Assembly: GCF_003334305.1 (NCBI RefSeq)
Contig: NZ_QOWS01000003.1
Strand: one strand, 5' to 3'
DNA from: Escherichia coli
GTDB lineage: Bacteria; Pseudomonadota; Gammaproteobacteria; Enterobacterales; Enterobacteriaceae
Length of the DNA stretch: 64,000 bases
The translations under genes were made by a program, and so were the position numbers. Positions 1,956 to 27,410 of the stretch are shown here, piece after piece. Below the pieces are notes generated by a model. That model had not been told where the DNA came from. It made no database searches and worked only from the letters and a program-made list of their open reading frames with translations. The first letter of the stretch is position 1; the number at the start of each line of letters is the position of its first letter.

Positions 1956-2468
1956 TTAAATCGCAGCTTCCATTTCCAGCATCACCGGATGGAAACGGCG
2001 TTTAAAGTAAATAAGTCCGTGACCTTCTGCACTGAGGATGATGTTTTTAATCTCCACCAGATACACCAGATGTGTGCCAATCGCCTGCACATCGCGGATC
2101 TCTCCTTCAAGACTGGCCAGCGAACCTTTCAGCACCGGCTGCGCCAGCGGACCTTTTTGCCAGCATGAGAGGCTAAAACGCTCTTCCATCGCCATGCCTG
2201 TCATGCCCGCGAAGTGGCGTGCCATCAGTTCCTGCTCATGGTTGAGGACGTTGACGCACAACTTACCGTTGCCCTGAAAAACCGGGTTCATCGCACTGTT
2301 GGCGTTAATGCACACCATCAGCGACGGTGGTGTATCCGTGACCGAGCAGACGGCCGTTGCCGTAATTCCGCATTGTCCGGCGTCGCCCTCGGTGGTGATA
2401 ATATTTACCGCTGCCGACAGGCTGGCCATTGCGTCACGAAAGCGCAGGCGTTGTTCATCTAATTGCAT
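1956..2468 (-). CDS. hpaC: 4-hydroxyphenylacetate 3-monooxygenase, flavin reductase component
   Basis: 170 aa ORF; small flavin reductase adjacent to hpaB; recognised from translation and operon context. Confidence 0.85.
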   Translation of the reverse strand: MQLDEQRLRFRDAMASLSAAVNIITTEGDAGQCGITATAVCSVTDTPPSLMVCINANSAMNPVFQGNGKLCVNVLNHEQELMARHFAGMTGMAMEERFSLSCWQKGPLAQPVLKGSLASLEGEIRDVQAIGTHLVYLVEIKNIILSAEGHGLIYFKRRFHPVMLEMEAAI

Positions 2469-2485
2469 CTTAACCTCCTGCTGCG

Positions 2486-4048
2486 TTATTTCAGCAGCTT
2501 ATCCAGCATGTTGATATCGTCGTTGTTGTGCAGGTGCGGCACAGTCCAGCCGTTCTGGTCGTATTCCGACAGGCAGCGATCAACCATCGCCATCATCTTG
2601 TCCATATTGCCGGAGCTTTGTGCCTGGCGCAGACACTGCAGGCGAATCTCATCCTGGCTACCGGAGTAGTTGATTTCATACAGTTCGTGACGACCACCAA
2701 ACTCGCTGCCAATGGCATCCCACATCAGTTTGAGGATCTTGATGCGCTGGACGTGATCCATACCGTTCGAACCGCGCACATACTTCGCCAGATACTGGTC
2801 GATCTGCGGATTGTTCAGGTCACGGGCACTGGAAGGGAGATAGATCAGGCCACTGGTAACGTTGCGTTCGATAATGTTTTTGATCTTCGCGTAGGCCATT
2901 GGTGCCAGTACGCGATAGGTTTGCAGTGCGGCATGATCCGGTAAATAAGCCCCGTTGACCCACGGCGTCGCTTCAGAACACATCGAGTCACTCAATGCCC
3001 AGAAGGTGTTGCGCCACGCCACCACTTCACCGAGATCGGCCTGCACACCACGGAACTCCAGGGTGCCGGTACATTCGAGTGATTTTTTCAGCAGTGCCGT
3101 AATGAAGTCGAGTTTCACTGCCAGGCGCACACAGGCTTGCAGCGGATACATACGGGCGAAACCGCCTTCCATCGTCCAGCGACGGCAGCGATCAAAATCG
3201 CGGTAGATCAGCACGTTTTCCCATGGGATCAGCACGTTATCCATCACCAGAATCGCATCGTTCTCATCGAAGCGGCTGGAGAGCGGGTAGTCGTACGGCG
3301 AGCCGGTAGCACCCGCGACCATCTCATAAGAGGCGCGGGAGATTAATTTCACGCCATCGGCATCCATTGGCGCAACGAACATCAGTGCGAAGTCCGGGTT
3401 TTCGCCCATTACTTGTGCCGAGCCGAAGCCAATCATGTTGTAGTGAGTCAGCGCCGAGTTGGTGGCAACCACTTTCGCACCGCTAACGATAATCCCGGCG
3501 TCAGTCTCTTTTTCCAGCTTGATGTAAACGTCTTTCACTTTATCGGTCGGCAAATGACGATCGATCGGTGGGTTAACAATCGCGTGGTTAAAGTAGAGGC
3601 CAGTTTCCTGAATACGGGTGTACCAGTTACGGGCGTTCTGCTCGAACTGACCGTAAAAGCCCGGATTCGCGCCCAGTGCGCAACCGAAAGCAGCTTTGTA
3701 GTCTGGGGTACGGCCCATCCAGCCATAGCTCAGGCGTGACCATTCAGCGATGGCGTCGCGTTGCTGGCGCAGGTCGTCGGCACTTTTCGCCACGCGGAAG
3801 AATTTATGGGTATAGCCGCCGCTGCCGGTGTCGGTGTTCCAACACAGAGAGTCCTGCATCTCCGGTTTGTGCAGCGCGTCGTACAGTTGGGCAACAGACG
3901 CTGCCGCATTACGAAATGCCGGATGAGTGGTGACGTCTTTCACTCGCTCGCCATAGATATAGATCTCGCGACCATCCTGCAGGCTTTTCAGATACTCTTC
4001 CCCGGTGAAAGGACGTTGGGTACTGGCGCGGAAATCTTCTGGTTTCAT
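2486..4048 (-). CDS. hpaB: 4-hydroxyphenylacetate 3-monooxygenase, oxygenase component
   Basis: 520 aa ORF MKPEDFRASTQRPFTGEEYLKSL...; length and sequence typical of HpaB. Confidence 0.9.
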   Translation of the reverse strand: MKPEDFRASTQRPFTGEEYLKSLQDGREIYIYGERVKDVTTHPAFRNAAASVAQLYDALHKPEMQDSLCWNTDTGSGGYTHKFFRVAKSADDLRQQRDAIAEWSRLSYGWMGRTPDYKAAFGCALGANPGFYGQFEQNARNWYTRIQETGLYFNHAIVNPPIDRHLPTDKVKDVYIKLEKETDAGIIVSGAKVVATNSALTHYNMIGFGSAQVMGENPDFALMFVAPMDADGVKLISRASYEMVAGATGSPYDYPLSSRFDENDAILVMDNVLIPWENVLIYRDFDRCRRWTMEGGFARMYPLQACVRLAVKLDFITALLKKSLECTGTLEFRGVQADLGEVVAWRNTFWALSDSMCSEATPWVNGAYLPDHAALQTYRVLAPMAYAKIKNIIERNVTSGLIYLPSSARDLNNPQIDQYLAKYVRGSNGMDHVQRIKILKLMWDAIGSEFGGRHELYEINYSGSQDEIRLQCLRQAQSSGNMDKMMAMVDRCLSEYDQNGWTVPHLHNNDDINMLDKLLK

Positions 4049-4298
4049 GTCGACCTCTACAGTATTAATCGGAATACGATTGTTAATTTTGTGTGTTGTT
4101 TTTGTTATTTAATTGAAGCTTGCAGGGGCGATTACGGGAAGACACTTTTGGGACAATGGCTGGTACTTTTCAGGTCGGGTACGGTTTTGTGATCGAGGTC
4201 GCTTTTAGCGATTTTTAACGTTACTAAATCCCCTTGCTCCAGGCGGAGAAAGGGGAATAGCAGGTGGTGCCTGGTTTCCCGTTAAGGCTAAGGGATTT
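4049..4298 (-). promoter_or_regulatory. hpaBC promoter region (HpaA-activated per literature)
   Basis: 250 bp noncoding gap between hpaA stop and hpaB start; AT-rich stretch 4075-4110. Confidence 0.4.
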
Positions 4299-5189
4299 TC
4301 ACGTCACAGGTACTTTTTTGGCACGATAAGCACTGGGCGAGCAACCGACTAAGCGATTAAAAAAGCGCGCAAAATAAGCCGGATCTTTAAAACCGAGTTG
4401 CCAGGCAATATTGTTCACGGCGTTATCAGAAAACAGCAGCAGCCGCTTGGCTTCTCGTAGCTGCCTGTCGAAAATCAACCGTTTTGGCGGACGGTTGGCA
4501 AAGCGGCGGCAGATGTCCGTGAGTCGTGATTCGGTGATATGCAGTTCGTTAGCGTAATCCGGTACTGTCCAGTGCTGATGAAAATGGCTTTCAATCAGCA
4601 TATTAAAACGCTGGAACAGTTTTAATTCTCCGCGCATCCCGCTGGCGGCATGGTCGTCGAGTTTTGCATTACGCAGCAGTAGGGTGAACACTGCCTGTGC
4701 CAGTAGCGTCAGGGTGTGTTCCCGTCCAGGCAGTTGTTCCACCGATTCCCGCTCTATCAGTTGCCAATAGTGTTCCAGCGCCGCCAGTTCGTCGGGTTTA
4801 TCTGCCAGTGACAGGCAAATCCCCGGCAGGCCGAAGGTTTCCCGAGTGCCTGGATAAAGAACTTCCAGCAGGGGCCAGATCAGATCTTCCCGTACCGTCA
4901 ACACATGACCGTCGGCGTCAGACTCCGTAATAAACGCATGAGGTACTGACGGTGGCGTCAGGACAAACAGGGGCGCTTCCACCGAGTAGCGATGATCGTC
5001 AAGCTGTAGCTCAATCTGTCCGCTATTGAGGAAATGCATCTGAAAGTACTGTTCGTGGCGATGTGGCAGCATATGGCGGCCAAAAAAGGCCGCCATGCGG
5101 GCGAACGACTGATAATGCACATCGTCCGTGCCCAGGCTTTCATCGTACTCTTTGCTGATATCAATATTGGCAATCTGACGGTCACACAT
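4299..5189 (-). CDS. hpaA: AraC/XylS-family activator of hpaBC
   Basis: 296 aa ORF with C-terminal AraC-type HTH (…RLIFDRQLREAKRLLLFSDNAVNNIAWQLGFKDPAYFARFF…). Confidence 0.85.
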   Translation of the reverse strand: MCDRQIANIDISKEYDESLGTDDVHYQSFARMAAFFGRHMLPHRHEQYFQMHFLNSGQIELQLDDHRYSVEAPLFVLTPPSVPHAFITESDADGHVLTVREDLIWPLLEVLYPGTRETFGLPGICLSLADKPDELAALEHYWQLIERESVEQLPGREHTLTLLAQAVFTLLLRNAKLDDHAASGMRGELKLFQRFNMLIESHFHQHWTVPDYANELHITESRLTDICRRFANRPPKRLIFDRQLREAKRLLLFSDNAVNNIAWQLGFKDPAYFARFFNRLVGCSPSAYRAKKVPVT

Positions 5190-5198
5190 CGTCGTTCC

Positions 5199-6575
5199 TT
5201 ACGGGGTCGCTCGCGGACGGGAGGACTGCATTGGAATCGCCCAGATAATCCCCGCACCAATCACCAGCAGCGCGGCAACAAACCACAATCCACTGTTAAA
5301 GCTGCCGGTCAGATCTTTCAACCAGCCGATCATAAACGGACTTAACGCTGAACCAATGTTGCCAGTGGCGTTGATCACCGCAATACCGATCGCTCGTGCC
5401 CGCAGGCTGATGGACTGATCCGGTGTTGTCCAGAAAATCGCCATTGCGCTGAATGATCCGGTCGAAGCCATAATGATCCCCAGCATCTGGATCATGTTGT
5501 GATCAGTTGCCGAAGCCAGTAACCAACCTGCGGCAGCGAACAAATAAGGAAGGGCGGTGTGATGCCTTCGTTCCTGGCGGCGATCTGAGTGACGGCTCCA
5601 GTAGACCATCCCGAGAATGGTACAAATCTGCGGTACGGCGGCCAGCAGGCCGATGGTGATATTACTGCTGCCCTGATTAAAACTTTGCAGGATCTGCGGT
5701 GTCCAGATGCTGATCGCACTAAGTGTGTTGGTCAGGCAGAAATACGCCAGGGTATACATCATCACCACCGGAGTGAAGATCTCCCGCCACATACTGCGTT
5801 GTTGCATGGCGTGGTGGCTGATGGCTCCCTCTGGCTGAACCAGCGTCAGACGATCGTTATCCATCATCTCTTGCAGGCATTTTTTGTCTTCTTTCGTCAG
5901 CCACTTAGCTTTGTCCGGTGAGTCATCAAGCCAGAACCACACCATGACGCCGAGTAATACCGACGGGAAGCCTTCCAGCAAAAACAGCCACTGCCAGCCT
6001 TTTAATGCCATTACGCCATCCAGCGACAAAATGTAGCCGGAAACGAGCGATCCCAACGCTGTCGTTACCGGCATTGCAACCATAAACAAGGCGTTGGCAC
6101 GGGCGCGGAAATAGGCCGGAAACCAGAAGGTTAAATACAGCAGAATGCCAGGCAGAAAGCCGGCTTCGGTAATGCCAACCAGTATACGCAGTACGTACAA
6201 GCTGGTGGGGCCAGTGGCAAACATGGTGGCAGTAGAGGCGATGCCCCAGAGCACCATGATGGTGGCGATCCAGCGCCGCGCACCGACAATACTCAGCATA
6301 ATGTTGCTGGGAATGCCGAAGATGACATAAGCGGCATAGAACAGGGTGGTAGCGAGGCCAAACATGGTGGCGCTCAGACCGAGGTCGCGTCCCATCGTGA
6401 GTCCGGCAAAGCCGATGTTGATGCGATCAAGGAACGAGAAGATAAACAGCACGAACAGAAAGACGATCAGGCGGCGAAATAGCTTCTTAATAACCGCCTG
6501 TTGTCCGGCAGTCAGCGCTTTATGCTGATTCGCCGGATCGATACTCTCCGGTATGGCAGGTGAGGTGTCGCTCAT
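5199..6575 (-). CDS. hpaX: 4-hydroxyphenylacetate permease (MFS)
   Basis: MFS-type membrane protein; start set at MSDTSPA (ATG 6575) preceded by aggaag RBS; track ORF extends to 6635. Confidence 0.8.
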   Translation of the reverse strand: MSDTSPAIPESIDPANQHKALTAGQQAVIKKLFRRLIVFLFVLFIFSFLDRINIGFAGLTMGRDLGLSATMFGLATTLFYAAYVIFGIPSNIMLSIVGARRWIATIMVLWGIASTATMFATGPTSLYVLRILVGITEAGFLPGILLYLTFWFPAYFRARANALFMVAMPVTTALGSLVSGYILSLDGVMALKGWQWLFLLEGFPSVLLGVMVWFWLDDSPDKAKWLTKEDKKCLQEMMDNDRLTLVQPEGAISHHAMQQRSMWREIFTPVVMMYTLAYFCLTNTLSAISIWTPQILQSFNQGSSNITIGLLAAVPQICTILGMVYWSRHSDRRQERRHHTALPYLFAAAGWLLASATDHNMIQMLGIIMASTGSFSAMAIFWTTPDQSISLRARAIGIAVINATGNIGSALSPFMIGWLKDLTGSFNSGLWFVAALLVIGAGIIWAIPMQSSRPRATP

Positions 6576-6619
6576 TTTTCTTCCTCTAATGGGATTTTTG
6601 TAGGGTACGACAAGGTTTA

Positions 6620-6749
<130 letters not shown>

Positions 6750-6750
<1 letters not shown>

Positions 6751-7538
6751 TAATACACGCCGGGCTTCACGGCGGTGGCCTGCGCACCAAACCGTGCTGC
6801 CAGCGCTTCAGCGGCGCGGGCGAGCAGGGTGGTGTCAACGCCGACGGCGACAAACAGCGCGCCCAGTTCCAGATAGCGTTTTGCCAGTTGCTCATTGGCG
6901 ATCAGGATCCCCGGCGCTTTGCCCGCTTCGCGGATCTGCACGATCGCCTGCTCAATGGCGGCCTGTACTTCCGGGTGCTGCGGATTACCGGCATAACCCA
7001 TATCGGCGCTCAGATCCGCCGGGCCGATAAACACGCCGTCGACCCCTTCCACGTCCAGAATCTGCGGTAAGTTCTTCATTGCCTCACGCGTTTCGATCTG
7101 CACCAGCACGCACATTTGATCGTTGGCTTTTTGCAGGTAATCAGGAATGCGATTCCAGCGCGAGGCACGGGCCAGCGCACTGCCCACACCGCGAATACCG
7201 GCGGGGGGATAACGGGTGGCGCGTACCGCTTCACGGGCTTCGTCAGCGTTTTGAACCATCGGCACCAGTAAGGTTTGTGTGCCGACGTCCAGCAGTTGTT
7301 TGATTTGCACCGGATCGTTCCACGACGGACGTACTACCGGCTGGCTGGGGTAGGGCGCAATCGCCTGTAGCTGGGTGAGCACGGTTTGCACGTTATTCGG
7401 CGCGTGCTCACCGTCGATCAATAACCAGTCGAATCCTGCTCCGGCCAGTAACTCTGCGCTGTAGCTGCTACTTAGCCCCAGCCATAATCCGATCTGCGGG
7501 CGGCCTGCTTTCAGCGCCGCTTTAAAACTGTTTTCCAT
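6750..7538 (-). CDS. hpaI: 2,4-dihydroxyhept-2-ene-1,7-dioate aldolase
   Basis: Start placed at [21 protein letters not shown] (262 aa); track ORF is longer upstream, running through the hpaH 3' end. Confidence 0.8.
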
Positions 7539-7548
7539 CGTTCTCTCC

Positions 7549-8352
7549 TTAAACAAAGCGGCAGCTAATGGAGCCCATGTTGCCGTAATCGACGTGGAAG
7601 GTGTCGCCCTTACGCGCCGGAACCGGGCGGGTGAACGAACCGCCGAGAATGATTTGCCCGGCTTCCAGTTGTACGTCATACGGTGCGAGTTTGTTCGCCA
7701 GCCAGGCCACGCCGTTTGCCGGATGATTTAGCACGCCAGCGGCGACGCCGGTTTCTTCAATCACGCCATTGCGATACATCAGGGCGGAGATCCAACGCAG
7801 ATCCAGTTCGTCTGGTTTGATCGGACGACCGCCGAGGATCACTCCGGCGTTGGCGGCGTTATCAGAAATGGTGTCGAACACTTTGCGCGGGCGCTGGGTT
7901 TCCGGATCGATGTTGTGGCAGCGAGCGTCGATCAGCTCCAGCGCCGGGATCACGTAGTCCGTGGCGTTGTAGACGTCGAACAGCGTGCAGTTTGGCCCAC
8001 GCAGCGGTTTTGCCAGCACGAAAGCCAGCTCCACTTCAATGCGCGGCACGATAAAGCGATCGGTCGGGATATCGCTGCCATCGTGGAAGAACATGTCGTC
8101 CAGCAATGCACCGTAATCTGGTTCGCTGATTTGTGAGCTGGCCTGCATCGCTTTCGAGGTCAGACCGATTTTGTGGCCTTTCAGCGTACGGCCTTCGGCG
8201 ATTTTCAGTCGAACCCATTCACGCTGCACCGCGTAAGCGTCTTCGATGGTGATCTCCGGGTAATCCAGGGAGATCGCGCGGATCTGTTCGCGCTGTTTTT
8301 CTGCCTGATCCAGACGCTGGGCGATCAGGGTGTGGGTGTGTTTATCGAACAT
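7549..8352 (-). CDS. hpaH: 2-oxo-hept-3-ene-1,7-dioate hydratase
   Basis: Hydratase-family ORF; start placed at [14 protein letters not shown] (267 aa). Confidence 0.8.
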
Positions 8353-8419
8353 AGCGATATCCTGTGGCATTGCCGGATGCGGCTGCGCCTTATCATCCGG
8401 CCTGGAAGCTGGTGCAAAT

Positions 8420-8800
8420 TTATTTAAACAACGCGTGCACGTTGTTTTGTTTAAAATTCAGCGTCGGGTGCAGCTCTGCAATCTCAAATGAAAGCGCCAG
8501 GTAACGGCTCTCCATCAGTGAGGCGAAGTGCGTTTTAATCAGATCAAACAGCATTTCGCCCACTTCCTGACGGCTTTCCAGGCTGCGCCCGCTGCCGATT
8601 TTTAGCGTCATATGCACAAAGGCGTAATCGTGCTTGCCATCAGCCATTTGCCAGGTATCGATCCAGTGCGCCCGGCTACGTATTCCCCCAAGCGGAAAAA
8701 TCCCCGTCGCCGCCAGTGCAGTGTTAACACTGGCAAACAGCTCAGGTAAGCGGGCTTCTTGACGAATATTTTCAGTACATTCCACGATAAAGTGCGGCAT
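8420..8800 (-). CDS. hpaF: 5-carboxymethyl-2-hydroxymuconate isomerase
   Basis: 126 aa ORF in hpa operon order. Confidence 0.8.
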
Positions 8801-8809
8801 GGTGGTTCC

Positions 8810-9661
8810 TTACGCGGGAAGCGGGAAAACAGCGTTAACCTGACCGGTGCCAGAGCTTGGGAATAGCTCGGTGATAAACTCCACCTTGCCGTCGTATTTA
8901 TCCCAGCCGAGCATCCCCAGCAGCATCACCGTGTCGTGCATATTGCCTTCGCCGTAGCAGTAGTCGGCGTACTCCGGCAGCATATTGCAGAACTCTTTGA
9001 ACTGGCCTTCGCGCCACAACTTCACCACGCGCTCGTCCATCTGGCGGTCGAACTCGCGGGTGTAGCTGTTCATCCCTTCTTCTGCACGCTGATCGTCAAT
9101 AAAGCGGTGCGATAACGAACCGCTGGCAAGGACCGCCACGGTGCCGTCGTACTGTTCGATCGCTTTCAGAATCGCTTCGCCCAGCTTGCGGCTGTCGGCA
9201 AAATCGTGAACCGTGCAGAAAGCCGAAATGGAGACCACTTTGAAGCGCTTGTCTTCATTCATGTAGCGCATCGGTACCAGCGTGCCGTATTCCAGTTTCA
9301 GGCTGGGAATGTTGTGCGCTTTTGCCCGCACGCCGAGCTTTAAGGCTTCATCGGCAATTAGCTGCCCCAACTCCGGGTTGCCCTCGTAGTTGTAGGTCAT
9401 GTCACGAATAAAATGCGGCAGCTCGTTGCTGGTGTAGACGCCTTCAAAATGGTCTGCACAGTTGATGTGATAAGCACTGTTGACCAGCCAGTGGGTATCG
9501 AAAACGATAATGGTATCGACGCCCATTTCCCGGCAACGCTTGCTGATCTCTTTATGCCCGTCGATCGCACCCTGGCGGCAACCGTGGTTTTTCCCTGGCA
9601 GTTCAGAGAGATACATCGACGGTACGTGCGTGATCTTGGCGGCTAACGCTAACTTACCCAT
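8810..9661 (-). CDS. hpaD: 3,4-dihydroxyphenylacetate (homoprotocatechuate) 2,3-dioxygenase
   Basis: 283 aa extradiol dioxygenase-like ORF in hpa operon. Confidence 0.85.
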   Translation of the reverse strand: MGKLALAAKITHVPSMYLSELPGKNHGCRQGAIDGHKEISKRCREMGVDTIIVFDTHWLVNSAYHINCADHFEGVYTSNELPHFIRDMTYNYEGNPELGQLIADEALKLGVRAKAHNIPSLKLEYGTLVPMRYMNEDKRFKVVSISAFCTVHDFADSRKLGEAILKAIEQYDGTVAVLASGSLSHRFIDDQRAEEGMNSYTREFDRQMDERVVKLWREGQFKEFCNMLPEYADYCYGEGNMHDTVMLLGMLGWDKYDGKVEFITELFPSSGTGQVNAVFPLPA

Positions 9662-9662
9662 A

Positions 9663-11129
9663 TCAGACTCCCCATTTCGGAATTGGATGGTCGCCCATGG
9701 AAATGCAGACGTTCTTCATTTCCGCGAACACTTCGAAGCTGTACTCACCGCCTTCACGTCCGGTGCCGGAGGCTTTTACGCCGCCAAACGGCTGGCGCAG
9801 GTCGCGGACGTTCTGGGTGTTGACGAACACCATGCCTGCTTCAATGCCACGCGCCAGGCGTAACACTTTGCTGACATCCTGTGTCCAGATGTACGACGCG
9901 AGGCCGTACTCCACGTCGTTTGCCAGGCGTAAGCCTTCGGCTTCGTCTTTAAACGGCAGCAGGCAGGCGACCGGCCCGAAAATCTCTTCCTGGGCGACGC
10001 GCATACGGTTATCAACGTCTGCCAGCACCGTTGGGCGCAGGAAGTTGCCGCCTTTCAGGTGTGCAGGCAGGTCAGACGGTTTATCCGGGCCGCCCGCCAG
10101 CAGGGTTGCGCCTTCTTCAATGCCGAGACGGATATAGCCGGAGACTTTTTCCCAGTGTTGCTGGCTGATAAGCGCCCCAACCTGGGTATTTGGATCGTTC
10201 GGATCGCCCACGCGCAGACGGTTGGCGCGTTCGGCAAAGCGTTTAACGAATTCCGGGTAGATGCTCTGCTGAATAAAGATGCGCGAACCGGCGGTGCAGC
10301 GTTCGCCGTTGATCGAGAAGATGGTGAACAGGGCGGCGTCCAGCGCGCGTTCAATATCAGCATCTTCAAAAATCAGCACCGGCGATTTACCGCCCAGTTC
10401 CATGGAGTATTTTTTCAGCCCGGCGTTTTTCATGATGTTGCGCCCGGTGGCGGTACCGCCGGTGAACGACACGGCACGCACGTCATGATGACGAACCAGC
10501 GCATCCCCTGCGGTTGCGCCGTAGCCCTGTACCACGTTCAGCACGCCTGCCGGAATACCGGCTTCCAGCGCCAGCTCACCCAGGCGGTCAGCGGTCAGCG
10601 GGGAGAGTTCCGACATCTTCAGCACCGCGGTATTGCCCAGCGCCAGACACGGCGCGACCTTCCAGGTGGCGGTCATAAACGGCACGTTCCACGGCGATAC
10701 CAGCGCACAAACGCCCACCGGCTGCACCAGCGTGTAGTTGAGCATCTTGTCGTCAACCGGATAGGTCTTGCCGTTCATCTGCTGGCAGACTTCCGCGAAA
10801 AATTCAAAGTTGTGAGAAGCGCGTGGGATCAACACATTTTTGGTCTGATGGATCGGCAGGCCCGTGTCCGCGGTTTCCATCGCGGCGATCTCCGGTACGT
10901 TCTGGTCGATCAGATCGCCCAGACGGCGCATCAGGCGCGCGCGCTCTTTCATCGGCAGATTGGCCCATTTCGGGAACGCCTCTTTCGCTGCCGCTACCGC
11001 CTGATTGATCTCCGCTTCACCGCCGGAGGCCACATCCGCCAGCACTTCACCCGTTGCCGGATTGGTAGTCTGGAAGTAGTCGTTACCTGCAACATTTTTA
11101 CCGTTGATCCAATGATTTACTTTTTTCAT
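9663..11129 (-). CDS. hpaE: 5-carboxymethyl-2-hydroxymuconate semialdehyde dehydrogenase
   Basis: 488 aa aldehyde dehydrogenase family ORF (…ELGGKSP… motif). Confidence 0.85.
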   Translation of the reverse strand: MKKVNHWINGKNVAGNDYFQTTNPATGEVLADVASGGEAEINQAVAAAKEAFPKWANLPMKERARLMRRLGDLIDQNVPEIAAMETADTGLPIHQTKNVLIPRASHNFEFFAEVCQQMNGKTYPVDDKMLNYTLVQPVGVCALVSPWNVPFMTATWKVAPCLALGNTAVLKMSELSPLTADRLGELALEAGIPAGVLNVVQGYGATAGDALVRHHDVRAVSFTGGTATGRNIMKNAGLKKYSMELGGKSPVLIFEDADIERALDAALFTIFSINGERCTAGSRIFIQQSIYPEFVKRFAERANRLRVGDPNDPNTQVGALISQQHWEKVSGYIRLGIEEGATLLAGGPDKPSDLPAHLKGGNFLRPTVLADVDNRMRVAQEEIFGPVACLLPFKDEAEGLRLANDVEYGLASYIWTQDVSKVLRLARGIEAGMVFVNTQNVRDLRQPFGGVKASGTGREGGEYSFEVFAEMKNVCISMGDHPIPKWGV

Positions 11130-12415
11130 TTCGCTGTTTCCTCACTCACAATTCGGTTCACCAGGCGGCCCACGCCTTCTACTTCCACCACCACTTCATC
11201 GCCAGGCACCACGTCAGATAAGCCTTTTGGTGTGCCGGTGGCGATCATGTCGCCCGGATTCAGGGTCATAAATTCGCTTAAGTAGGCGATCAGGAAGGGC
11301 ACGCTGAAGATCAGATCGGCGGTGGTGCCTTGCTGGCGTAACTCGCCGTTGACGAAGGTGCGAAGGGTCAGATTATGCGGGTCCGGGATCGCCTCTTTCG
11401 GCACGATGGTTGAAAGCATCGGCGTCAGTCCGTCGCGGCTTTTGACCCGCAGGTTAGGGCGGTAGTAGTTTTCCAGATAGTCGCGAATGGCGTAGTCGTT
11501 ACACACGGTGTAGCCCGCGACATAATCCATGGCATCGGCTTCGCTGACGTTACGCGCCTGTTTGCCAATAACTACCACCAGCTCCGCTTCATAGTGCATG
11601 TATTCAATATTGTTTGGACGCACGGAGGTCTGGTTATCGCCAGTGAGGGTATTTGGCGCTTTCAGGAACACCAGCGGTTCTTCCGGTGGCTTAAATTCCA
11701 GTTCGCTGGCGTGGTCGGCGTAGTTCAGGCCGAGGGCAAACAGCGTGCCGTGCGGGTGTGGCTGCGTTGGGAAGCTCTTGCGCGTGGTCACTTCACGTTC
11801 GTCCACTACCGGATTTTCCAGCGGCGGGAAACCTTCTGCGAGAACACGAACGCGATCGCCTGGCTGTATTTCCACGCGCGCCTGTGGCGTGCCGAGCAGA
11901 ATGGCATCGCCTGGATTCAGTGTGGCAAATTCGCTCAGGGCGCTCAGCAACTGCGCGGCGTTACGTTGTAAATCGGCGGTATTCCAGTGATCGGCAGGAC
12001 GCCCGTTGATCTCGGTATAGATGGTCAGATTATCGACATTGCTGAGAGCCACGGTTTCGCCAATGGGGCAGAATCCATCACGACATTTTGCTTTGATTGC
12101 CGGGCGGTAAAAGCTCTCTTCCGGCAGGCTGACGTCGTTAGCCAGCGCATATCCGGCGATGTACTCTGCCGCATCTTCTTCACGTACTTTCGTCGCCGTT
12201 TTTCCCACAATCAGCGCAACAGTCGCACCGCTCAGTACCTTTTCACCCTGTGGAAAGGGAATCGGTTCACCGCAACCAATCACCGTATTGCGCGGTTTAA
12301 TAAACCAGACCGCAGTTTTAGGCGGGGCTTTGTAGGGGGATTGCTGGAACGCTTCCTGCCATGCATCAAGTTGGCTGCGATGGTTCAACGCTACGGCGAA
12401 GATAGTGCCTTTCAT
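11126..12415 (-). CDS. hpaG: Bifunctional OPET decarboxylase / HHDD isomerase (duplicated FAH-fold)
   Basis: 429 aa with two internally similar halves; 4-bp overlap with hpaE start. Confidence 0.8.
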   Translation of the reverse strand: MKGTIFAVALNHRSQLDAWQEAFQQSPYKAPPKTAVWFIKPRNTVIGCGEPIPFPQGEKVLSGATVALIVGKTATKVREEDAAEYIAGYALANDVSLPEESFYRPAIKAKCRDGFCPIGETVALSNVDNLTIYTEINGRPADHWNTADLQRNAAQLLSALSEFATLNPGDAILLGTPQARVEIQPGDRVRVLAEGFPPLENPVVDEREVTTRKSFPTQPHPHGTLFALGLNYADHASELEFKPPEEPLVFLKAPNTLTGDNQTSVRPNNIEYMHYEAELVVVIGKQARNVSEADAMDYVAGYTVCNDYAIRDYLENYYRPNLRVKSRDGLTPMLSTIVPKEAIPDPHNLTLRTFVNGELRQQGTTADLIFSVPFLIAYLSEFMTLNPGDMIATGTPKGLSDVVPGDEVVVEVEGVGRLVNRIVSEETAK

Positions 12416-12421
12416 TACCAC

Positions 12422-12686
12422 TCCTCGGATTCGATCATTTTAATCATTAATATGTTAATGATTACTTTTATTCCCGATTGCGTAGTTTGGCAAAAGTAAG
12501 TGATGTAAATGTGATCTAATTAACAAACTATTTACATTTAAAGATAATAAAATATTAAATATCAGCAAGTTAACAAAACATGCTCAATTTTGATAAAATG
12601 AAGAATTGCAGGGGCAGCGCAGTCCCGGTAACGTGATGATTAACTGTTTCTATATTAATGATTTTGAATTTTTCAGGGGAAAGATA
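12422..12686. promoter_or_regulatory. Divergent hpaG / hpaR promoter-operator region
   Basis: 265 bp AT-rich gap between divergently oriented hpaG and hpaR. Confidence 0.5.
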
Positions 12687-13133
12687 ATGCACGACTCTCT
12701 AACCATTGCGTTGCTCCAGGCGCGAGAAGCGGCGATGAGTTATTTTCGCCCAATCGTTAAACGGCATAATTTGACTGAGCAACAGTGGCGCATCGTGCGT
12801 ATTCTGGCGGAAAGCCCATCAATGGATTTTCACGATCTGGCGTATCGCGCCTGCATTTTGCGCCCAAGCCTGACCGGGATCCTTACGCGGATGGAACGCG
12901 ACGGTTTAGTGTTGCGATTAAAGCCGATCAATGATCAGCGGAAGCTCTATATCTCGCTAACCAAAGAGGGGCAGGCGCTGTATAACCGCGCTCAGACACA
13001 GATTGAAGAAGCCTATCGGCAGATTGAAGCTCAGTTTACTGCCGAGAAAATGCAACAGTTAACCCATCTGTTAGAGGAATTTATTGCTCTGGGCAATTCC
13101 CGACAAGAAGACATCCCGGGCGATAATGAATAA
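12687..13133 (+). CDS. hpaR: MarR-family repressor of the hpa meta-cleavage operon
   Basis: Start at ATG 12687 (MHDSLTIALLQ…) with agggga RBS; 148 aa; MarR-like winged helix. Confidence 0.8.
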   Translation: MHDSLTIALLQAREAAMSYFRPIVKRHNLTEQQWRIVRILAESPSMDFHDLAYRACILRPSLTGILTRMERDGLVLRLKPINDQRKLYISLTKEGQALYNRAQTQIEEAYRQIEAQFTAEKMQQLTHLLEEFIALGNSRQEDIPGDNE

Positions 13134-23230: not shown

Positions 23231-23704
23231 TTATACGCGAGGGCGCTTGCGGTACAACCATAATCCAGGAATGGAAAGACCGATGGATAACGCACCAACA
23301 ATCGATGAAGCTGTAAGAAAGTTGGTTAACAGGGTAATCATCAACGGTTCGCTGTAACCTAACTGGCTGATTTTTACCGCCGAAATCATTGCGGTATAAG
23401 CCGATATGCCCGGGAACATAGGGATAACGGCCGCCACGGTAAACACTTTCGGATGCGCCAGATACCAGCGCGACCATTGAATACCAATGGTGCCGACCAG
23501 CATAGAAGCCATAAAGGTTGACCACTCAATATTCAGCCCGCTGGTCATTAAGATCATTCGTGAACCATGACCAATCGCGCCAAGCAGCGCACACCAGCGT
23601 AATGCCCGAACGGGAACGTTGAACACCATCGCAAAGCCGACCGCTGGAATGGCGGCGAGGATCATATCCTGCGCCAATGCAAACAGAAACTCGATCACAC
23701 CCAT
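23231..23704 (-). CDS. yjjB: Inner-membrane protein YjjB (putative transporter subunit with YjjP)
   Basis: 157 aa hydrophobic ORF; overlaps yjjP 3' end. Confidence 0.75.
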
Positions 23705-24465
23705 CCGCGTAGCCCCCAAATCGTCAGTGCCATCACCACGCCGACGCAGGTAGCCAGTGTCAGCAGACTGGCGATCGCCCAGCGTGCCAGTCCGGTATTG
23801 ATGTGGCCTTTAAACATATCGGCGACGGCATTTATCAACGGAAATCCCGGCACCAGCAGCAGAACGCTGGCGGCCATCGCAATGGTGGGTGTATTGCTGA
23901 AGGTGGGAAGTTGCAAAAGCAAACCGGAAATAGTGGTGGCGGCGAAAGCGGTGAGGCAAAAGTTGATCTGTGGATGAAGATGACGTTGTGCCAGTAGCTG
24001 GCGGATATACATCGCGGCCGTACTGGCAAAGAAGGTGATGACGGCACCATCCCAGCCACCTTTATTGAGTTTACAGAAACAGGCGCAGGAAAGGCCAACC
24101 ATTAAGGCTACCAGCCATCTTGGGTAACGTAATGGCTGAATTTGGCTAAATCGTTTCTCTACGCCTTTGTAATCCAGCAGATGGTGCTCCGCCAGAATCA
24201 CAATGTGCTGGACTTCAGTCACCACATGCATATTAATGCCGCGATCGTGATTTTTACGTGTCGATGTCAGGCATTGCCCATCTTTAATGGTTGTCAGCAC
24301 TATGGCGTTCGAAGAGATAGAACTTTCAACGCTGTCCATTCCCAGCGCCCGACCCAGTCGTGAGGAAAGCTCATCAACCAACGCGCTTTCCGCACCATGT
24401 TGCAGAAGAAATAATCCACACTGGATACAAAGCCGTGTTACGGCTCGCTGTTGCTCAGTTTGCAT
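23695..24465 (-). CDS. yjjP: Inner-membrane protein YjjP (ThrE-like)
   Basis: Start placed at [12 protein letters not shown] (256 aa); track ORF extends to 24528. Confidence 0.75.
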
Positions 24466-24528
24466 AACTCGCCCTTTGTCATAGACGTGCTGCGTATTGT
24501 TCAGATAATGAGAATCCATTTGTATCAT

Positions 24529-25083
24529 GAAGCACGGTTGTTTTGCGGTAGGTTAAGATCAAAATTGCGCTGATTAATCCTGGTTATCGGGACAAGCTCG
24601 GTGATAAAAAGCGAATTATCTCTCGCCGCAAACAAACTATCACATGAATATTATCACTATAATGAATTTATTGTTTGGCCTTTACGAATTAGGATAATAG
24701 ATAACCGGGCACGTTTTTTAATGTTAACAAGTTAAAACCATCAGATTTCATTGAATAAATATTGGTTGTGTGATTTTTCATTCTGCGGGAAGGGATATCA
24801 TTTAATTATAAATTAAATGAATGTGATTTCTGTTTTTCATTAAGTATTCCTAACAACTTAATGTAGATATTTTAAATGTCTCCAGGCTATTTCACCAGGT
24901 TATCATTTGATGCTAACCTTCTGACACATGCAGTGGAGTTGTTGTGCAGCAGGAGTATGCTGATATGAAAGTGAATGCTAAGGATAATTTATTCGCTTAA
25001 TCTATTAATTTGCTGGAAACATTTAAGGAATGAATATCCTGAATAAACCATCATGATTTTTAGACAGTGGATGTGGAGGAAAT
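24529..25083. promoter_or_regulatory. AT-rich divergent yjjP / yjjQ-bglJ control region
   Basis: About 550 bp strongly AT-rich noncoding DNA; known H-NS-silenced, LeuO-activated locus in K-12. Confidence 0.6.
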
Positions 25084-25809
25084 ATGTTGCCAGGATGCTG
25101 CAAAAATGGAATTGTTATCAGTAAAATACCTGTTATGCAAGCAGGGTTAAAAGAGGTCATGAGGACTCACTTCCCTGAATATGAAATAATATCCAGCGCC
25201 TCTGCGGAGGACCTTACCTTATTACAATTACGTCGTTCCGGATTAGTCATTGCTGATTTAGCCGGTGAAAGTGAAGATCCTCGTTCTGTTTGTGAACATT
25301 ATTATTCTTTAATCTCACAATATCGGGAAATTCACTGGGTTTTCATGGTGTCACGCTCCTGGTATTCCCAGGCAGTAGAATTGCTCATGTGCCCTACGGC
25401 GACGTTATTGTCTGATGTTGAACCCATTGAGAATCTGGTCAAGACCGTACGTTCCGGCAATACGCACGCAGAGCGTATCAGCGCCATGCTGACCTCTCCG
25501 GCAATGAATGAAACTCATGATTTTAGCTATCGCTCCGTCATTCTCACTCTTTCAGAGCGCAAGGTACTGCGGCTATTAGGTAAAGGATGGGGCATCAACC
25601 AGATAGCTTCGTTGCTTAAGAAAAGTAATAAAACTATCAGCGCCCAAAAAAACAGTGCGATGCGTCGACTGGCAATTCACAGCAACGCTGAAATGTATGC
25701 ATGGATAAATAGCGCGCAGGGTGCAAGAGAACTTAACTTGCCTTCTGTTTATGGAGATGCCGCAGAATGGAACACAGCCGAATTAAGAAGAGAAATGTCG
25801 CACTCATAG
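25084..25809 (+). CDS. yjjQ: LuxR/FixJ-family transcriptional regulator
   Basis: 241 aa with C-terminal LuxR-type HTH (…[41 protein letters not shown]…). Confidence 0.85.
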
Positions 25810-26444
25810 AAAAATGCGTCATGAGCAGTATCGGTATTGAGAGTTTATTCAGAAAGTTTGCGGGTAACCCTTATAAGCTCCATACCTATACCAGTCAGGA
25901 GTCATTTCAGGATGCCATGTCGCGGATCTCATTTGCGGCGGTCATTTTTTCTTTTTCTGCCATGAGAAGTGAGCGCAGAGAGGGATTATCTTGCCTGACT
26001 GAACTGGCGATTAAGTTTCCGCGTACCCGGCGTTTAGTTATTGCGGATGATGATATTGAAGCTCGGCTGATTGGTTCATTGTCGCCATCACCGCTGGACG
26101 GTGTATTAAGTAAAGCGTCAACGCTGGAGATTTTTCATCAGGAACTCTTTTTGTCATTAAATGGTGTACGTCAGGCGACCGACCGACTGAACAATCAGTG
26201 GTACATTAACCAAAGCCGGACGCTAAGCCCGACGGAGAGAGAAATATTGCGCTTTATGTCGCGTGGCTACTCAATGACACAAATTGCCGAGCAGCTTAAA
26301 CGCAATATCAAAACGATCCGTGCACATAAATTTAATGTGATGTCGAAACTGGGCGTCAGTTCTGATGCAGGGTTGTTGGAGGCCGCAGATATTCTGTTAT
26401 GTATGCGGCATTGCGAAGCAAGTAATGTGTTGCATCCCTATTAA
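25767..26444 (+). CDS. bglJ: LuxR-family regulator BglJ (RcsB partner)
   Basis: 225 aa with LuxR-type HTH (…[44 protein letters not shown]…); overlaps yjjQ by 43 bp. Confidence 0.85.
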
Positions 26445-27270: not shown

Positions 27271-27282
27271 AATCGGGATAGT

Positions 27283-27397
27283 AATCTAAATGATAATGAT
27301 TGCTAATCCTAGCGATAGGTTTACCCGATAGCAAGGGATTTCTCTGGCTTGCAAATGATAAAAATTATCATATGATATTGGTTTTCATTATCAATGA
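27283..27397. promoter_or_regulatory. Putative Fur boxes in the fhuF / yjjZ divergent promoter region
   Basis: aaatgataatgattgc (27283-27298) and aatgataaaaattatcatatgatattggttttcattatc (27354-27393) resemble the gataatgataatcattatc consensus. Confidence 0.6.
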
Positions 27398-27410
27398 AAG
27401 AGATGAAACC

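Follow-up and report, generated by a model that had tools for sequence, protein, structure and literature searches.

An AT-rich spacer between yjjP and yjjQ-bglJ of Escherichia coli as the probable counterpart of the characterised K-12 control region

Introduction

The closest described system is that of Escherichia coli K-12, whose yjjP/yjjQ-bglJ regulatory region was reportedly the subject of work by Stratmann, Madhusudan & Schnetz in 2008 (J Bacteriol 190:926). As summarised in passages of two later papers (PMC5025477 and PMC3950696, citing Stratmann 2008), H-NS, together with StpA, represses yjjQ-bglJ and, more weakly, yjjP in K-12, and H-NS holds yjjQ-bglJ off under laboratory conditions. 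The same passages state that LeuO, when it is expressed, activates both yjjQ-bglJ and yjjP, and they confirm the description of the K-12 locus as H-NS-repressed and LeuO-activated that was given in an earlier note on the DNA studied here. Passages of PMC3950696 also describe expression of yjjQ-bglJ in an hns stpA mutant of K-12 and a miniTn10 insertion upstream of bglJ that makes bglJ constitutive. By genomic SELEX, the yjjP<>yjjQ spacer was found to be bound in vitro by the RpoD holoenzyme and was flagged 'HNS' (PMC3946193). The divergent gene pair yjjPB encodes a succinate exporter, as cited in a passage of PMC7236211.

Here, the corresponding spacer was analysed in a 64,000-nucleotide (64-kb) stretch of E. 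coli DNA, which is referred to as the window. The spacer is read as a control region common to two divergent transcription units, yjjPB (exporter) and yjjQ-bglJ (LuxR-type regulator), and as orthologous to the characterised K-12 region; a probability of roughly 0.85 is assigned to this reading, the mechanism proposed in the Discussion included. The feature is real but was known before, through direct experiments on a K-12 sequence that is nearly the same. The additions made here are incremental: a boundary correction, a family-wide architecture, an enrichment of LeuO-like sites, the placement of a MarA site, and two candidate operators.

Results

The spacer and its flanking genes

The window is E. 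coli chromosomal DNA. Around the spacer, a 1-kb stretch matches E. coli strain A7 at 100% identity and occurs in 5425 of 5426 complete E. coli genomes; the spacer itself is found in 5424/5426, at 95.5–100% identity. In the RefSeq annotation of A7, the minus strand carries yjjA, dnaC, dnaT, yjjB, and yjjP, and the plus strand carries yjjQ and bglJ, after which come fhuF, yjjZ, and three tRNA-Leu genes. This annotation bears out the divergent arrangement of yjjP and an overlapping yjjQ-bglJ pair proposed in the earlier note, with 43 nt shared by the latter two genes (Table 1). BglJ matches its NCBIfam equivalog model with 383 bits against a cutoff of 176, YjjB is likewise an equivalog match, and YjjQ shows similarity to LuxR/FixJ-type HTH proteins only. 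Elsewhere in the window, the A7 annotation lists as pseudogenes a frameshifted btsT (1–1563), an HTH-domain gene with an internal stop between deoD and lplA (43122–43385), and a partial NadS-family gene after nadR (48914–49009).

The left boundary of the spacer had been placed at 24529, which is 63 bp short: the longest open reading frame (277 aa, ATG at 24528) had been taken for yjjP, and the RefSeq start is at 24465. In nearly all of the 75 analysable loci described below, the alignment of YjjP homologues begins at residue 1 of the 256-aa form or within its first six residues. Because these homologue starts fit the 256-aa form and a conserved non-coding element lies inside the 63-bp extension, the spacer is taken to span 24466–25083.

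Table 1 Features of the yjjP/yjjQ-bglJ locus in window coordinates.
Feature	Position	Strand	Description
yjjP/yjjQ spacer	24466–25083		618 bp, 34.1% GC; divergent control region; RefSeq annotation of A7 and composition
yjjP CDS	23695–24465	-	256 aa; start codon at 24465, not 24528; forms the YjjPB exporter with yjjB
yjjQ CDS	25084–25809	+	241 aa; LuxR/FixJ-type HTH
bglJ CDS	25767–26444	+	225 aa; 43-nt overlap with yjjQ
yjjQ Shine-Dalgarno GGAGG	25075–25079	+	4 nt before the ATG; conserved family-wide
Predicted sigma-70 promoter of yjjQ-bglJ, CTGATA-17-GATAAT	24960–24988	+	PMC3946193 (K-12) and scan; unique in the window
Predicted distal yjjP promoter, ATGAAA-17-TTTAAT	24812–24840	-	PMC3946193; once in the window; poorly conserved even within Escherichia
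Marbox GCATCAAATGATAAC	24899–24913	-	Exact, unique window match to the ETEC H10407 site (PMC5684230)
17-codon ORF MNIITIMNLLFGLYELG	24644–24697	+	Quoted in the earlier note; not coding
Inverted repeat TTAAG-TATTC-CTAAC (TTAAGTATTCCTAAC)	24840–24854	.	Candidate operator, ~244–245 bp upstream of the yjjQ ATG
TTGATC-N29-TGATACA module	24521–24562	-	Candidate yjjP core promoter and upstream site; unique in the window
TTGATC	24557–24562		yjjP side of the spacer
TGATACAA	24520–24527		yjjP side of the spacer
Best LeuO-core-like site, ACATTTA-AGGAA-TGAATAT	25019–25037	.	12/14 half-site positions

Base composition

The interval 24529–25083 has a GC content of 33.5%, compared to 52.5% for the 64-kb window (standard deviation of 4.5% for 555-bp windows). 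Equally low 555-bp windows amount to 0.28% and all fall in a single cluster at 24441–25356; nowhere else in the 64 kb does a 555-bp window drop below 36% GC. Among the 39 annotated intergenic regions of at least 50 bp, the 618-bp spacer is the longest (the next measures 399 bp) and its GC content is the third-lowest; the two lower ones, hpaG/hpaR and fhuF/yjjZ, are both much shorter. These values confirm the long, strongly AT-rich noncoding region that had been described from the letters. The low-GC tract also extends into the first ~250 bp of yjjQ (36–44% GC). Many A/T tracts had been noted as well; tracts are indeed present, but not in excess, with 14.6 per kb versus 15.7 ± 5.0 in composition-matched shuffles. 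A peak of AA/TT periodicity at ~10.8 bp in the spacer is not significant given the number of frequencies tested, and a search for direct and inverted repeats within the spacer returned short two-copy matches only. As for the shorter AT-rich regions, the hpaG/hpaR divergent spacer (12416–12686, 271 bp) has the lowest intergenic GC content in the window at 29.9%, the hpa (4-hydroxyphenylacetate) cluster occupies 1956–13133, and the fhuF/yjjZ divergent spacer (27271–27410, 140 bp) has a GC content of 32.9%.

Likeness to K-12 and H-NS-type motifs

The yjjP/yjjQ-bglJ region of K-12 has the same flanking genes in the same orientation, and its promoter hexamers and marbox are identical to those of the window. 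The encoded proteins differ at one amino acid in YjjQ and two in YjjP. The strain backgrounds differ in that the window carries the hpa cluster, which, to our knowledge, K-12 does not have. Because the two spacers differ at 7 of 618 positions (611 identical, 98.9% identity), none of which falls in a mapped or predicted element, the K-12 results are expected to transfer to this strain. By this analogy, the view that H-NS silencing of the yjjQ-bglJ region carries over from K-12 is supported.

A high-affinity motif is not obligatory for H-NS targets. Such a motif, of the tCGATAAATT type, is said to have been described by Lang et al. in 2007, and in the spacer it has no match with 0–1 mismatch. 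When up to three mismatches are allowed, the spacer contains 16 matches, compared to 11.0 ± 3.6 in composition-matched shuffles; these matches are ~3 times denser in the spacer than in the rest of the window and no more frequent than shuffles give. As H-NS-type motifs do not rise above the shuffles, the case for H-NS that can be made from the letters is a matter of composition alone.

LeuO and RcsB-BglJ motifs

The 7-N5-7 palindromic core of LeuO (ATATTCA-N5-TGAATAT) was rebuilt from the cas and leuO regions of K-12, following PMC6698644; the cas region carries ATATTCA-TACTG-TGAATAT and the leuO region ATATTGA-TTTGG-TGAATAT. Six sites that agree with this core at a minimum of 10 of the 14 positions are present in the spacer, versus 1.24 ± 1.1 in shuffles, and none of 500 shuffles reaches six (P < 0.002). 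Predicted LeuO-core-like sequences are thus enriched beyond composition. Sites with at least 12/14 agreement occur twice in the 64 kb, and one of them is the predicted site at 25019–25037, which is located downstream of the inferred yjjQ transcription start and just upstream of the yjjQ ribosome-binding site.

For RcsB-BglJ, the scan used the core wwTTCykA, and the RcsAB box was taken as TaAGaatatTCctA. The core has one match in the spacer, at 24845–24852, and 28 in the whole window, where 28.2 are expected by chance. With up to three mismatches, the RcsAB box is absent from the spacer. The earlier note had proposed scans for both LeuO and RcsB-BglJ motifs: the former gave the enrichment described above, and the latter, with the core motif, gave nothing above chance.

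Promoters and the MarA site

The transcription start inferred for yjjQ-bglJ from the CTGATA/GATAAT promoter is near 24995, and conservation of its −10 block, AAGGATAAnnnATTC, extends over Escherichia, Citrobacter, and Salmonella; the promoter itself is a prediction. In enterotoxigenic E. coli (ETEC) H10407, MarA ChIP-seq gave a strong peak (+++) in yjjP<>yjjQ, with a predicted marbox of sequence gcatcaaatgataac (PMC5684230). The earlier note does not mention the marbox at 24899–24913. This marbox is mostly conserved over five Escherichia clades, three of which have one substitution within the 15-mer, and its centre (24906.5) is located at about −88 relative to the start inferred for the CTGATA/GATAAT promoter. 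By coordinate arithmetic only, the centre would lie at −61.5 if the −10-like TATGCT (24956–24961) were used, with a start near 24968. A marbox centred at −61.5 corresponds to the classical class-I geometry.

A conserved module near yjjP and an inverted repeat upstream of yjjQ

On the yjjP side of the spacer, TTGATC is found in 75/75 loci, 75–103 nt from the yjjP ATG, compared to ~5/75 in shuffles. In nearly every locus that carries the block TGnTAnAn, TTGATC is situated exactly 35 nt upstream of it. From this arrangement we infer that the module may be the ancestral yjjP core promoter, with an extended −10-like TGnTAnAA, together with an upstream protein site; the promoter assignment is kept at this strength because the last base of the −10-like element is atypical. 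Other identities were considered for TTGATC itself. With 32 nt to the −10-like block, it was ruled out as the −35 element of a standard promoter, and it was set aside as an FNR half-site (TTGAT-N4-ATCAA) since in the alignment the second half is conserved at 2/5 positions only.

On the yjjQ side, the family consensus GTTAG-N5-CTAAC is found in 32 of the 75 loci versus 13.7 (maximum of 21) in shuffles, and 23 of 36 matches are positioned 240–259 bp from the yjjQ ATG. In the K. oxytoca group and in Kluyvera the palindrome is perfect, and the repeat keeps company with yjjQ where pobA and an AraC-type gene intervene. The E. coli copy has two mismatches to the family consensus and, taken alone, is not significant. 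A role for GTTAG-N5-CTAAC as a YjjQ operator in common with flhDC is unsupported: flhDC is without the repeat and has TTTAG-N7-CTTAG in the RcsAB-box region, in a comparison made with the repeat sequence itself.

Conservation across the Enterobacteriaceae

YjjQ loci were collected from 80 species of Enterobacteriaceae, with one genome per species, and 75 of these loci were analysable. The order yjjB-yjjP / yjjQ-bglJ ... fhuF is kept over the 80 species, which include Escherichia, Citrobacter, Salmonella, Klebsiella, Enterobacter, Kluyvera, Raoultella, and others. Spacers of 387–709 bp, with a GC content of 32–44% compared to ~56% for yjjP, occur in 53 species; in 22 species, 1.8–2.6 kb separates yjjP from yjjQ. 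At the K. pneumoniae locus (L069, 1653–3735), pobA (4-hydroxybenzoate 3-monooxygenase) and an AraC-family regulator gene are found between yjjP and yjjQ, and the AT-rich segment upstream of yjjQ persists despite these intervening genes. The GC content of yjjQ and bglJ is about 47–48% throughout, below that of their neighbours in every genus. Outside Escherichia, identity to the E. coli proteins is 55–74% for YjjQ and 39–69% for BglJ, compared to 82–91% for YjjP, 79–90% for YjjB, and 64–80% for FhuF. Based on the synteny in 80 species and the persistently low GC content, the locus is an old resident, and sequence comparison indicates that its AT-rich architecture is ancestral to the Enterobacteriaceae and not a recent horizontal acquisition.

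Gaps between yjjP and yjjQ of a size like that in the K. pneumoniae locus are seen in Kluyvera, Raoultella, and C. amalonaticus. At a Citrobacter locus (L019, 5412–7583), genes for a YbaK-like deacylase and a PTS cellobiose-type IIC component lie between bglJ and fhuF, and gaps of comparable size at this second position are seen in most non-Escherichia loci.

Within Escherichia, the flanks of the spacer (~24466–24590 and 24838–25083) are conserved, at about 90% identity. The central ~250 bp (24590–24830) of E. coli can essentially not be aligned with the corresponding DNA of the cryptic Escherichia clades or of E. whittamii. The sole conserved island in this central part, ATGAATATTATCA (24644–24656), contains an exact LeuO half-site, TGAATAT.

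Insertions and natural variation

During mouse gut colonisation, IS insertions in the spacer are recurrently selected, and yjjP expression is ~2-fold higher aerobically (PMC4674774, PMC5094792). In the search of E. coli genomes with the spacer, 19 genomes gave split matches and 13 gave less than 80% coverage. Three aberrant isolates were inspected, and IS1 is involved in 3/3. In strain 203740 (human stool), IS1 is accompanied by a deletion that removes most of yjjQ and leaves 45 bp of the spacer, with bglJ intact beside the element. In PS3Tanimalfeces2 (cat), IS1 is accompanied by a deletion that runs from the 5' end of yjjP into bglJ. The IS1 of GDSC2239PM was ruled out as a spacer insertion because it sits in yjjQ, inside codons ~10–14 (window 25112–25124). 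The IS1 events in isolates parallel the laboratory transposon allele with constitutive bglJ, as well as the insertions that arose in gut-evolution experiments. Taken together, the mouse-gut insertions and the natural IS1 events indicate that disruption of the yjjP/yjjQ region is selected or tolerated.

Alternative readings of the spacer

The spacer could instead hold an unannotated gene, that is, a small protein (the 17-aa or another short ORF), a small RNA, or a leader element. The 17-codon ORF retains its start, stop, and length in 3/4 other Escherichia clades, its start falls on the conserved island ATGAATATTATCA, and the yjjP leader region is strongly conserved. Across the Escherichia clades, however, this ORF shows 0 synonymous versus 29 non-synonymous codon differences, with an in-frame stop in the closest clade, and relative to K-12 it shows two amino-acid changes and no synonymous change. 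It is preceded by no Shine-Dalgarno sequence. The remaining ORFs with 15 codons or more are each either interrupted or show mainly non-synonymous differences, so all ORFs were rejected as small-protein genes on frame conservation and substitution pattern, in support of the view in the earlier note that the short ORFs are not coding. On the RNA side, an Rfam scan of both strands of 24200–25400 gave no match at E ≤ 1, RNAalifold returned 0 conserved pairs for the yjjP leader in 45 genera-level sequences, and 60 sampled RefSeq records have no annotated feature inside the spacer. A hidden gene is accordingly considered very improbable. Slightly less credit still is given to yjjQ-bglJ as a recently acquired foreign island under xenogeneic H-NS silencing, a reading that is largely refuted. 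In its favour, yjjQ and bglJ (~45% GC) lie below their neighbours (~52%) in GC content, and the two proteins they encode evolve far more rapidly than YjjP, YjjB, and FhuF; against it, the synteny is the same in 80 species with low GC content in all, and the locus is present in 5424/5426 E. coli genomes, a distribution that is neither patchy nor narrow as would be expected of such an island.

A third reading, somewhat better placed than these two but still improbable, is that of an ordinary crowded divergent promoter region, in which the AT-richness would stem from promoters and sites for specific factors (MarA, LeuO, and others) and H-NS would not be the main control. Such crowding agrees with the several specific elements packed into the spacer, with the lack of a specific H-NS nucleation motif in it, and with the conservation of the yjjP module independently of the AT-rich part; other divergent spacers are also equally or more AT-rich, as exemplified by hpaG/hpaR. 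In contrast, the experiments on the 98.9%-identical K-12 sequence, as relayed in the passages cited in the Introduction, show dominant H-NS repression with the operon off, in vitro binding of H-NS is flagged in the spacer (PMC3946193), and the central ~250 bp, which are without conserved sites, are still AT-rich in all genera.

Discussion

The preferred reading remains that of a shared control region of yjjPB and yjjQ-bglJ that is orthologous to the one in K-12. In the mechanism proposed for it, H-NS would coat the spacer (34% GC) and the adjoining low-GC start of yjjQ through composition rather than through a specific high-affinity site, and this coating would occlude the yjjQ promoter (−35 at 24960, −10 at 24983). 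LeuO would bind the palindromic core-like sites, the best of which is at 25019–25037, and would block or remodel the H-NS filament. The yjjP gene would have its own compact promoter/operator module less than 100 bp from its start (24521–24562), one that would predate the silenced yjjQ side and could be separated from it. A further operator may be provided by the conserved inverted repeat at 24840–24854, on the yjjQ side.

A more tentative proposal, which is considered possible and at the same time rather doubtful, is that both conserved elements may serve as operators for regulators with no link to the locus so far: TTGATC-N29-TGnTAnAA, which all 75 loci carry 75–103 nt upstream of yjjP, and GTTAG-N5-CTAAC, which many genera carry ~200–260 bp upstream of yjjQ. 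If this were true, the two elements would be natural, signal-responsive switches of the succinate exporter and of a 'cryptic' regulator operon that lacks a known inducing condition, and the candidate operators would offer concrete sites for seeking the natural inducer. Together with the family-wide AT-rich architecture, these conserved candidate operators suggest that the 'silent' state may be an old regulatory design that has been maintained, as opposed to a by-product of recent import. The locus is part of a known circuit, in which H-NS, LeuO, and BglJ-RcsB control bgl, leuO, cas, and other genes, and YjjQ reportedly represses flhDC (Wiebe 2015).

Several features of the locus have counterparts in known systems. 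With the promoters of the MarA/SoxS/Rob regulon it has in common a MarA site, in that the 15-nt site predicted under the MarA peak in ETEC H10407 is present exactly in the spacer. With bgl, leuO, and cas of E. coli it has in common an AT-rich control region on which H-NS (and StpA) impose silencing that LeuO relieves. The LeuO palindrome of cas is perfect, whereas the best site in the spacer reaches 12/14, and a BglJ-RcsB box is not detectable in the yjjP/yjjQ spacer by the core-motif scan. The low-GC tract that reaches into yjjQ, the first gene, resembles the upstream-plus-downstream arrangement of H-NS sites at bgl described in a passage of PMC9678765. At all of these loci, yjjQ-bglJ included, IS insertions are natural de-silencing or disrupting mutations. 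Unlike bgl, leuO, and cas, however, the silenced genes yjjQ and bglJ are themselves regulators, which feed back on leuO and bgl.
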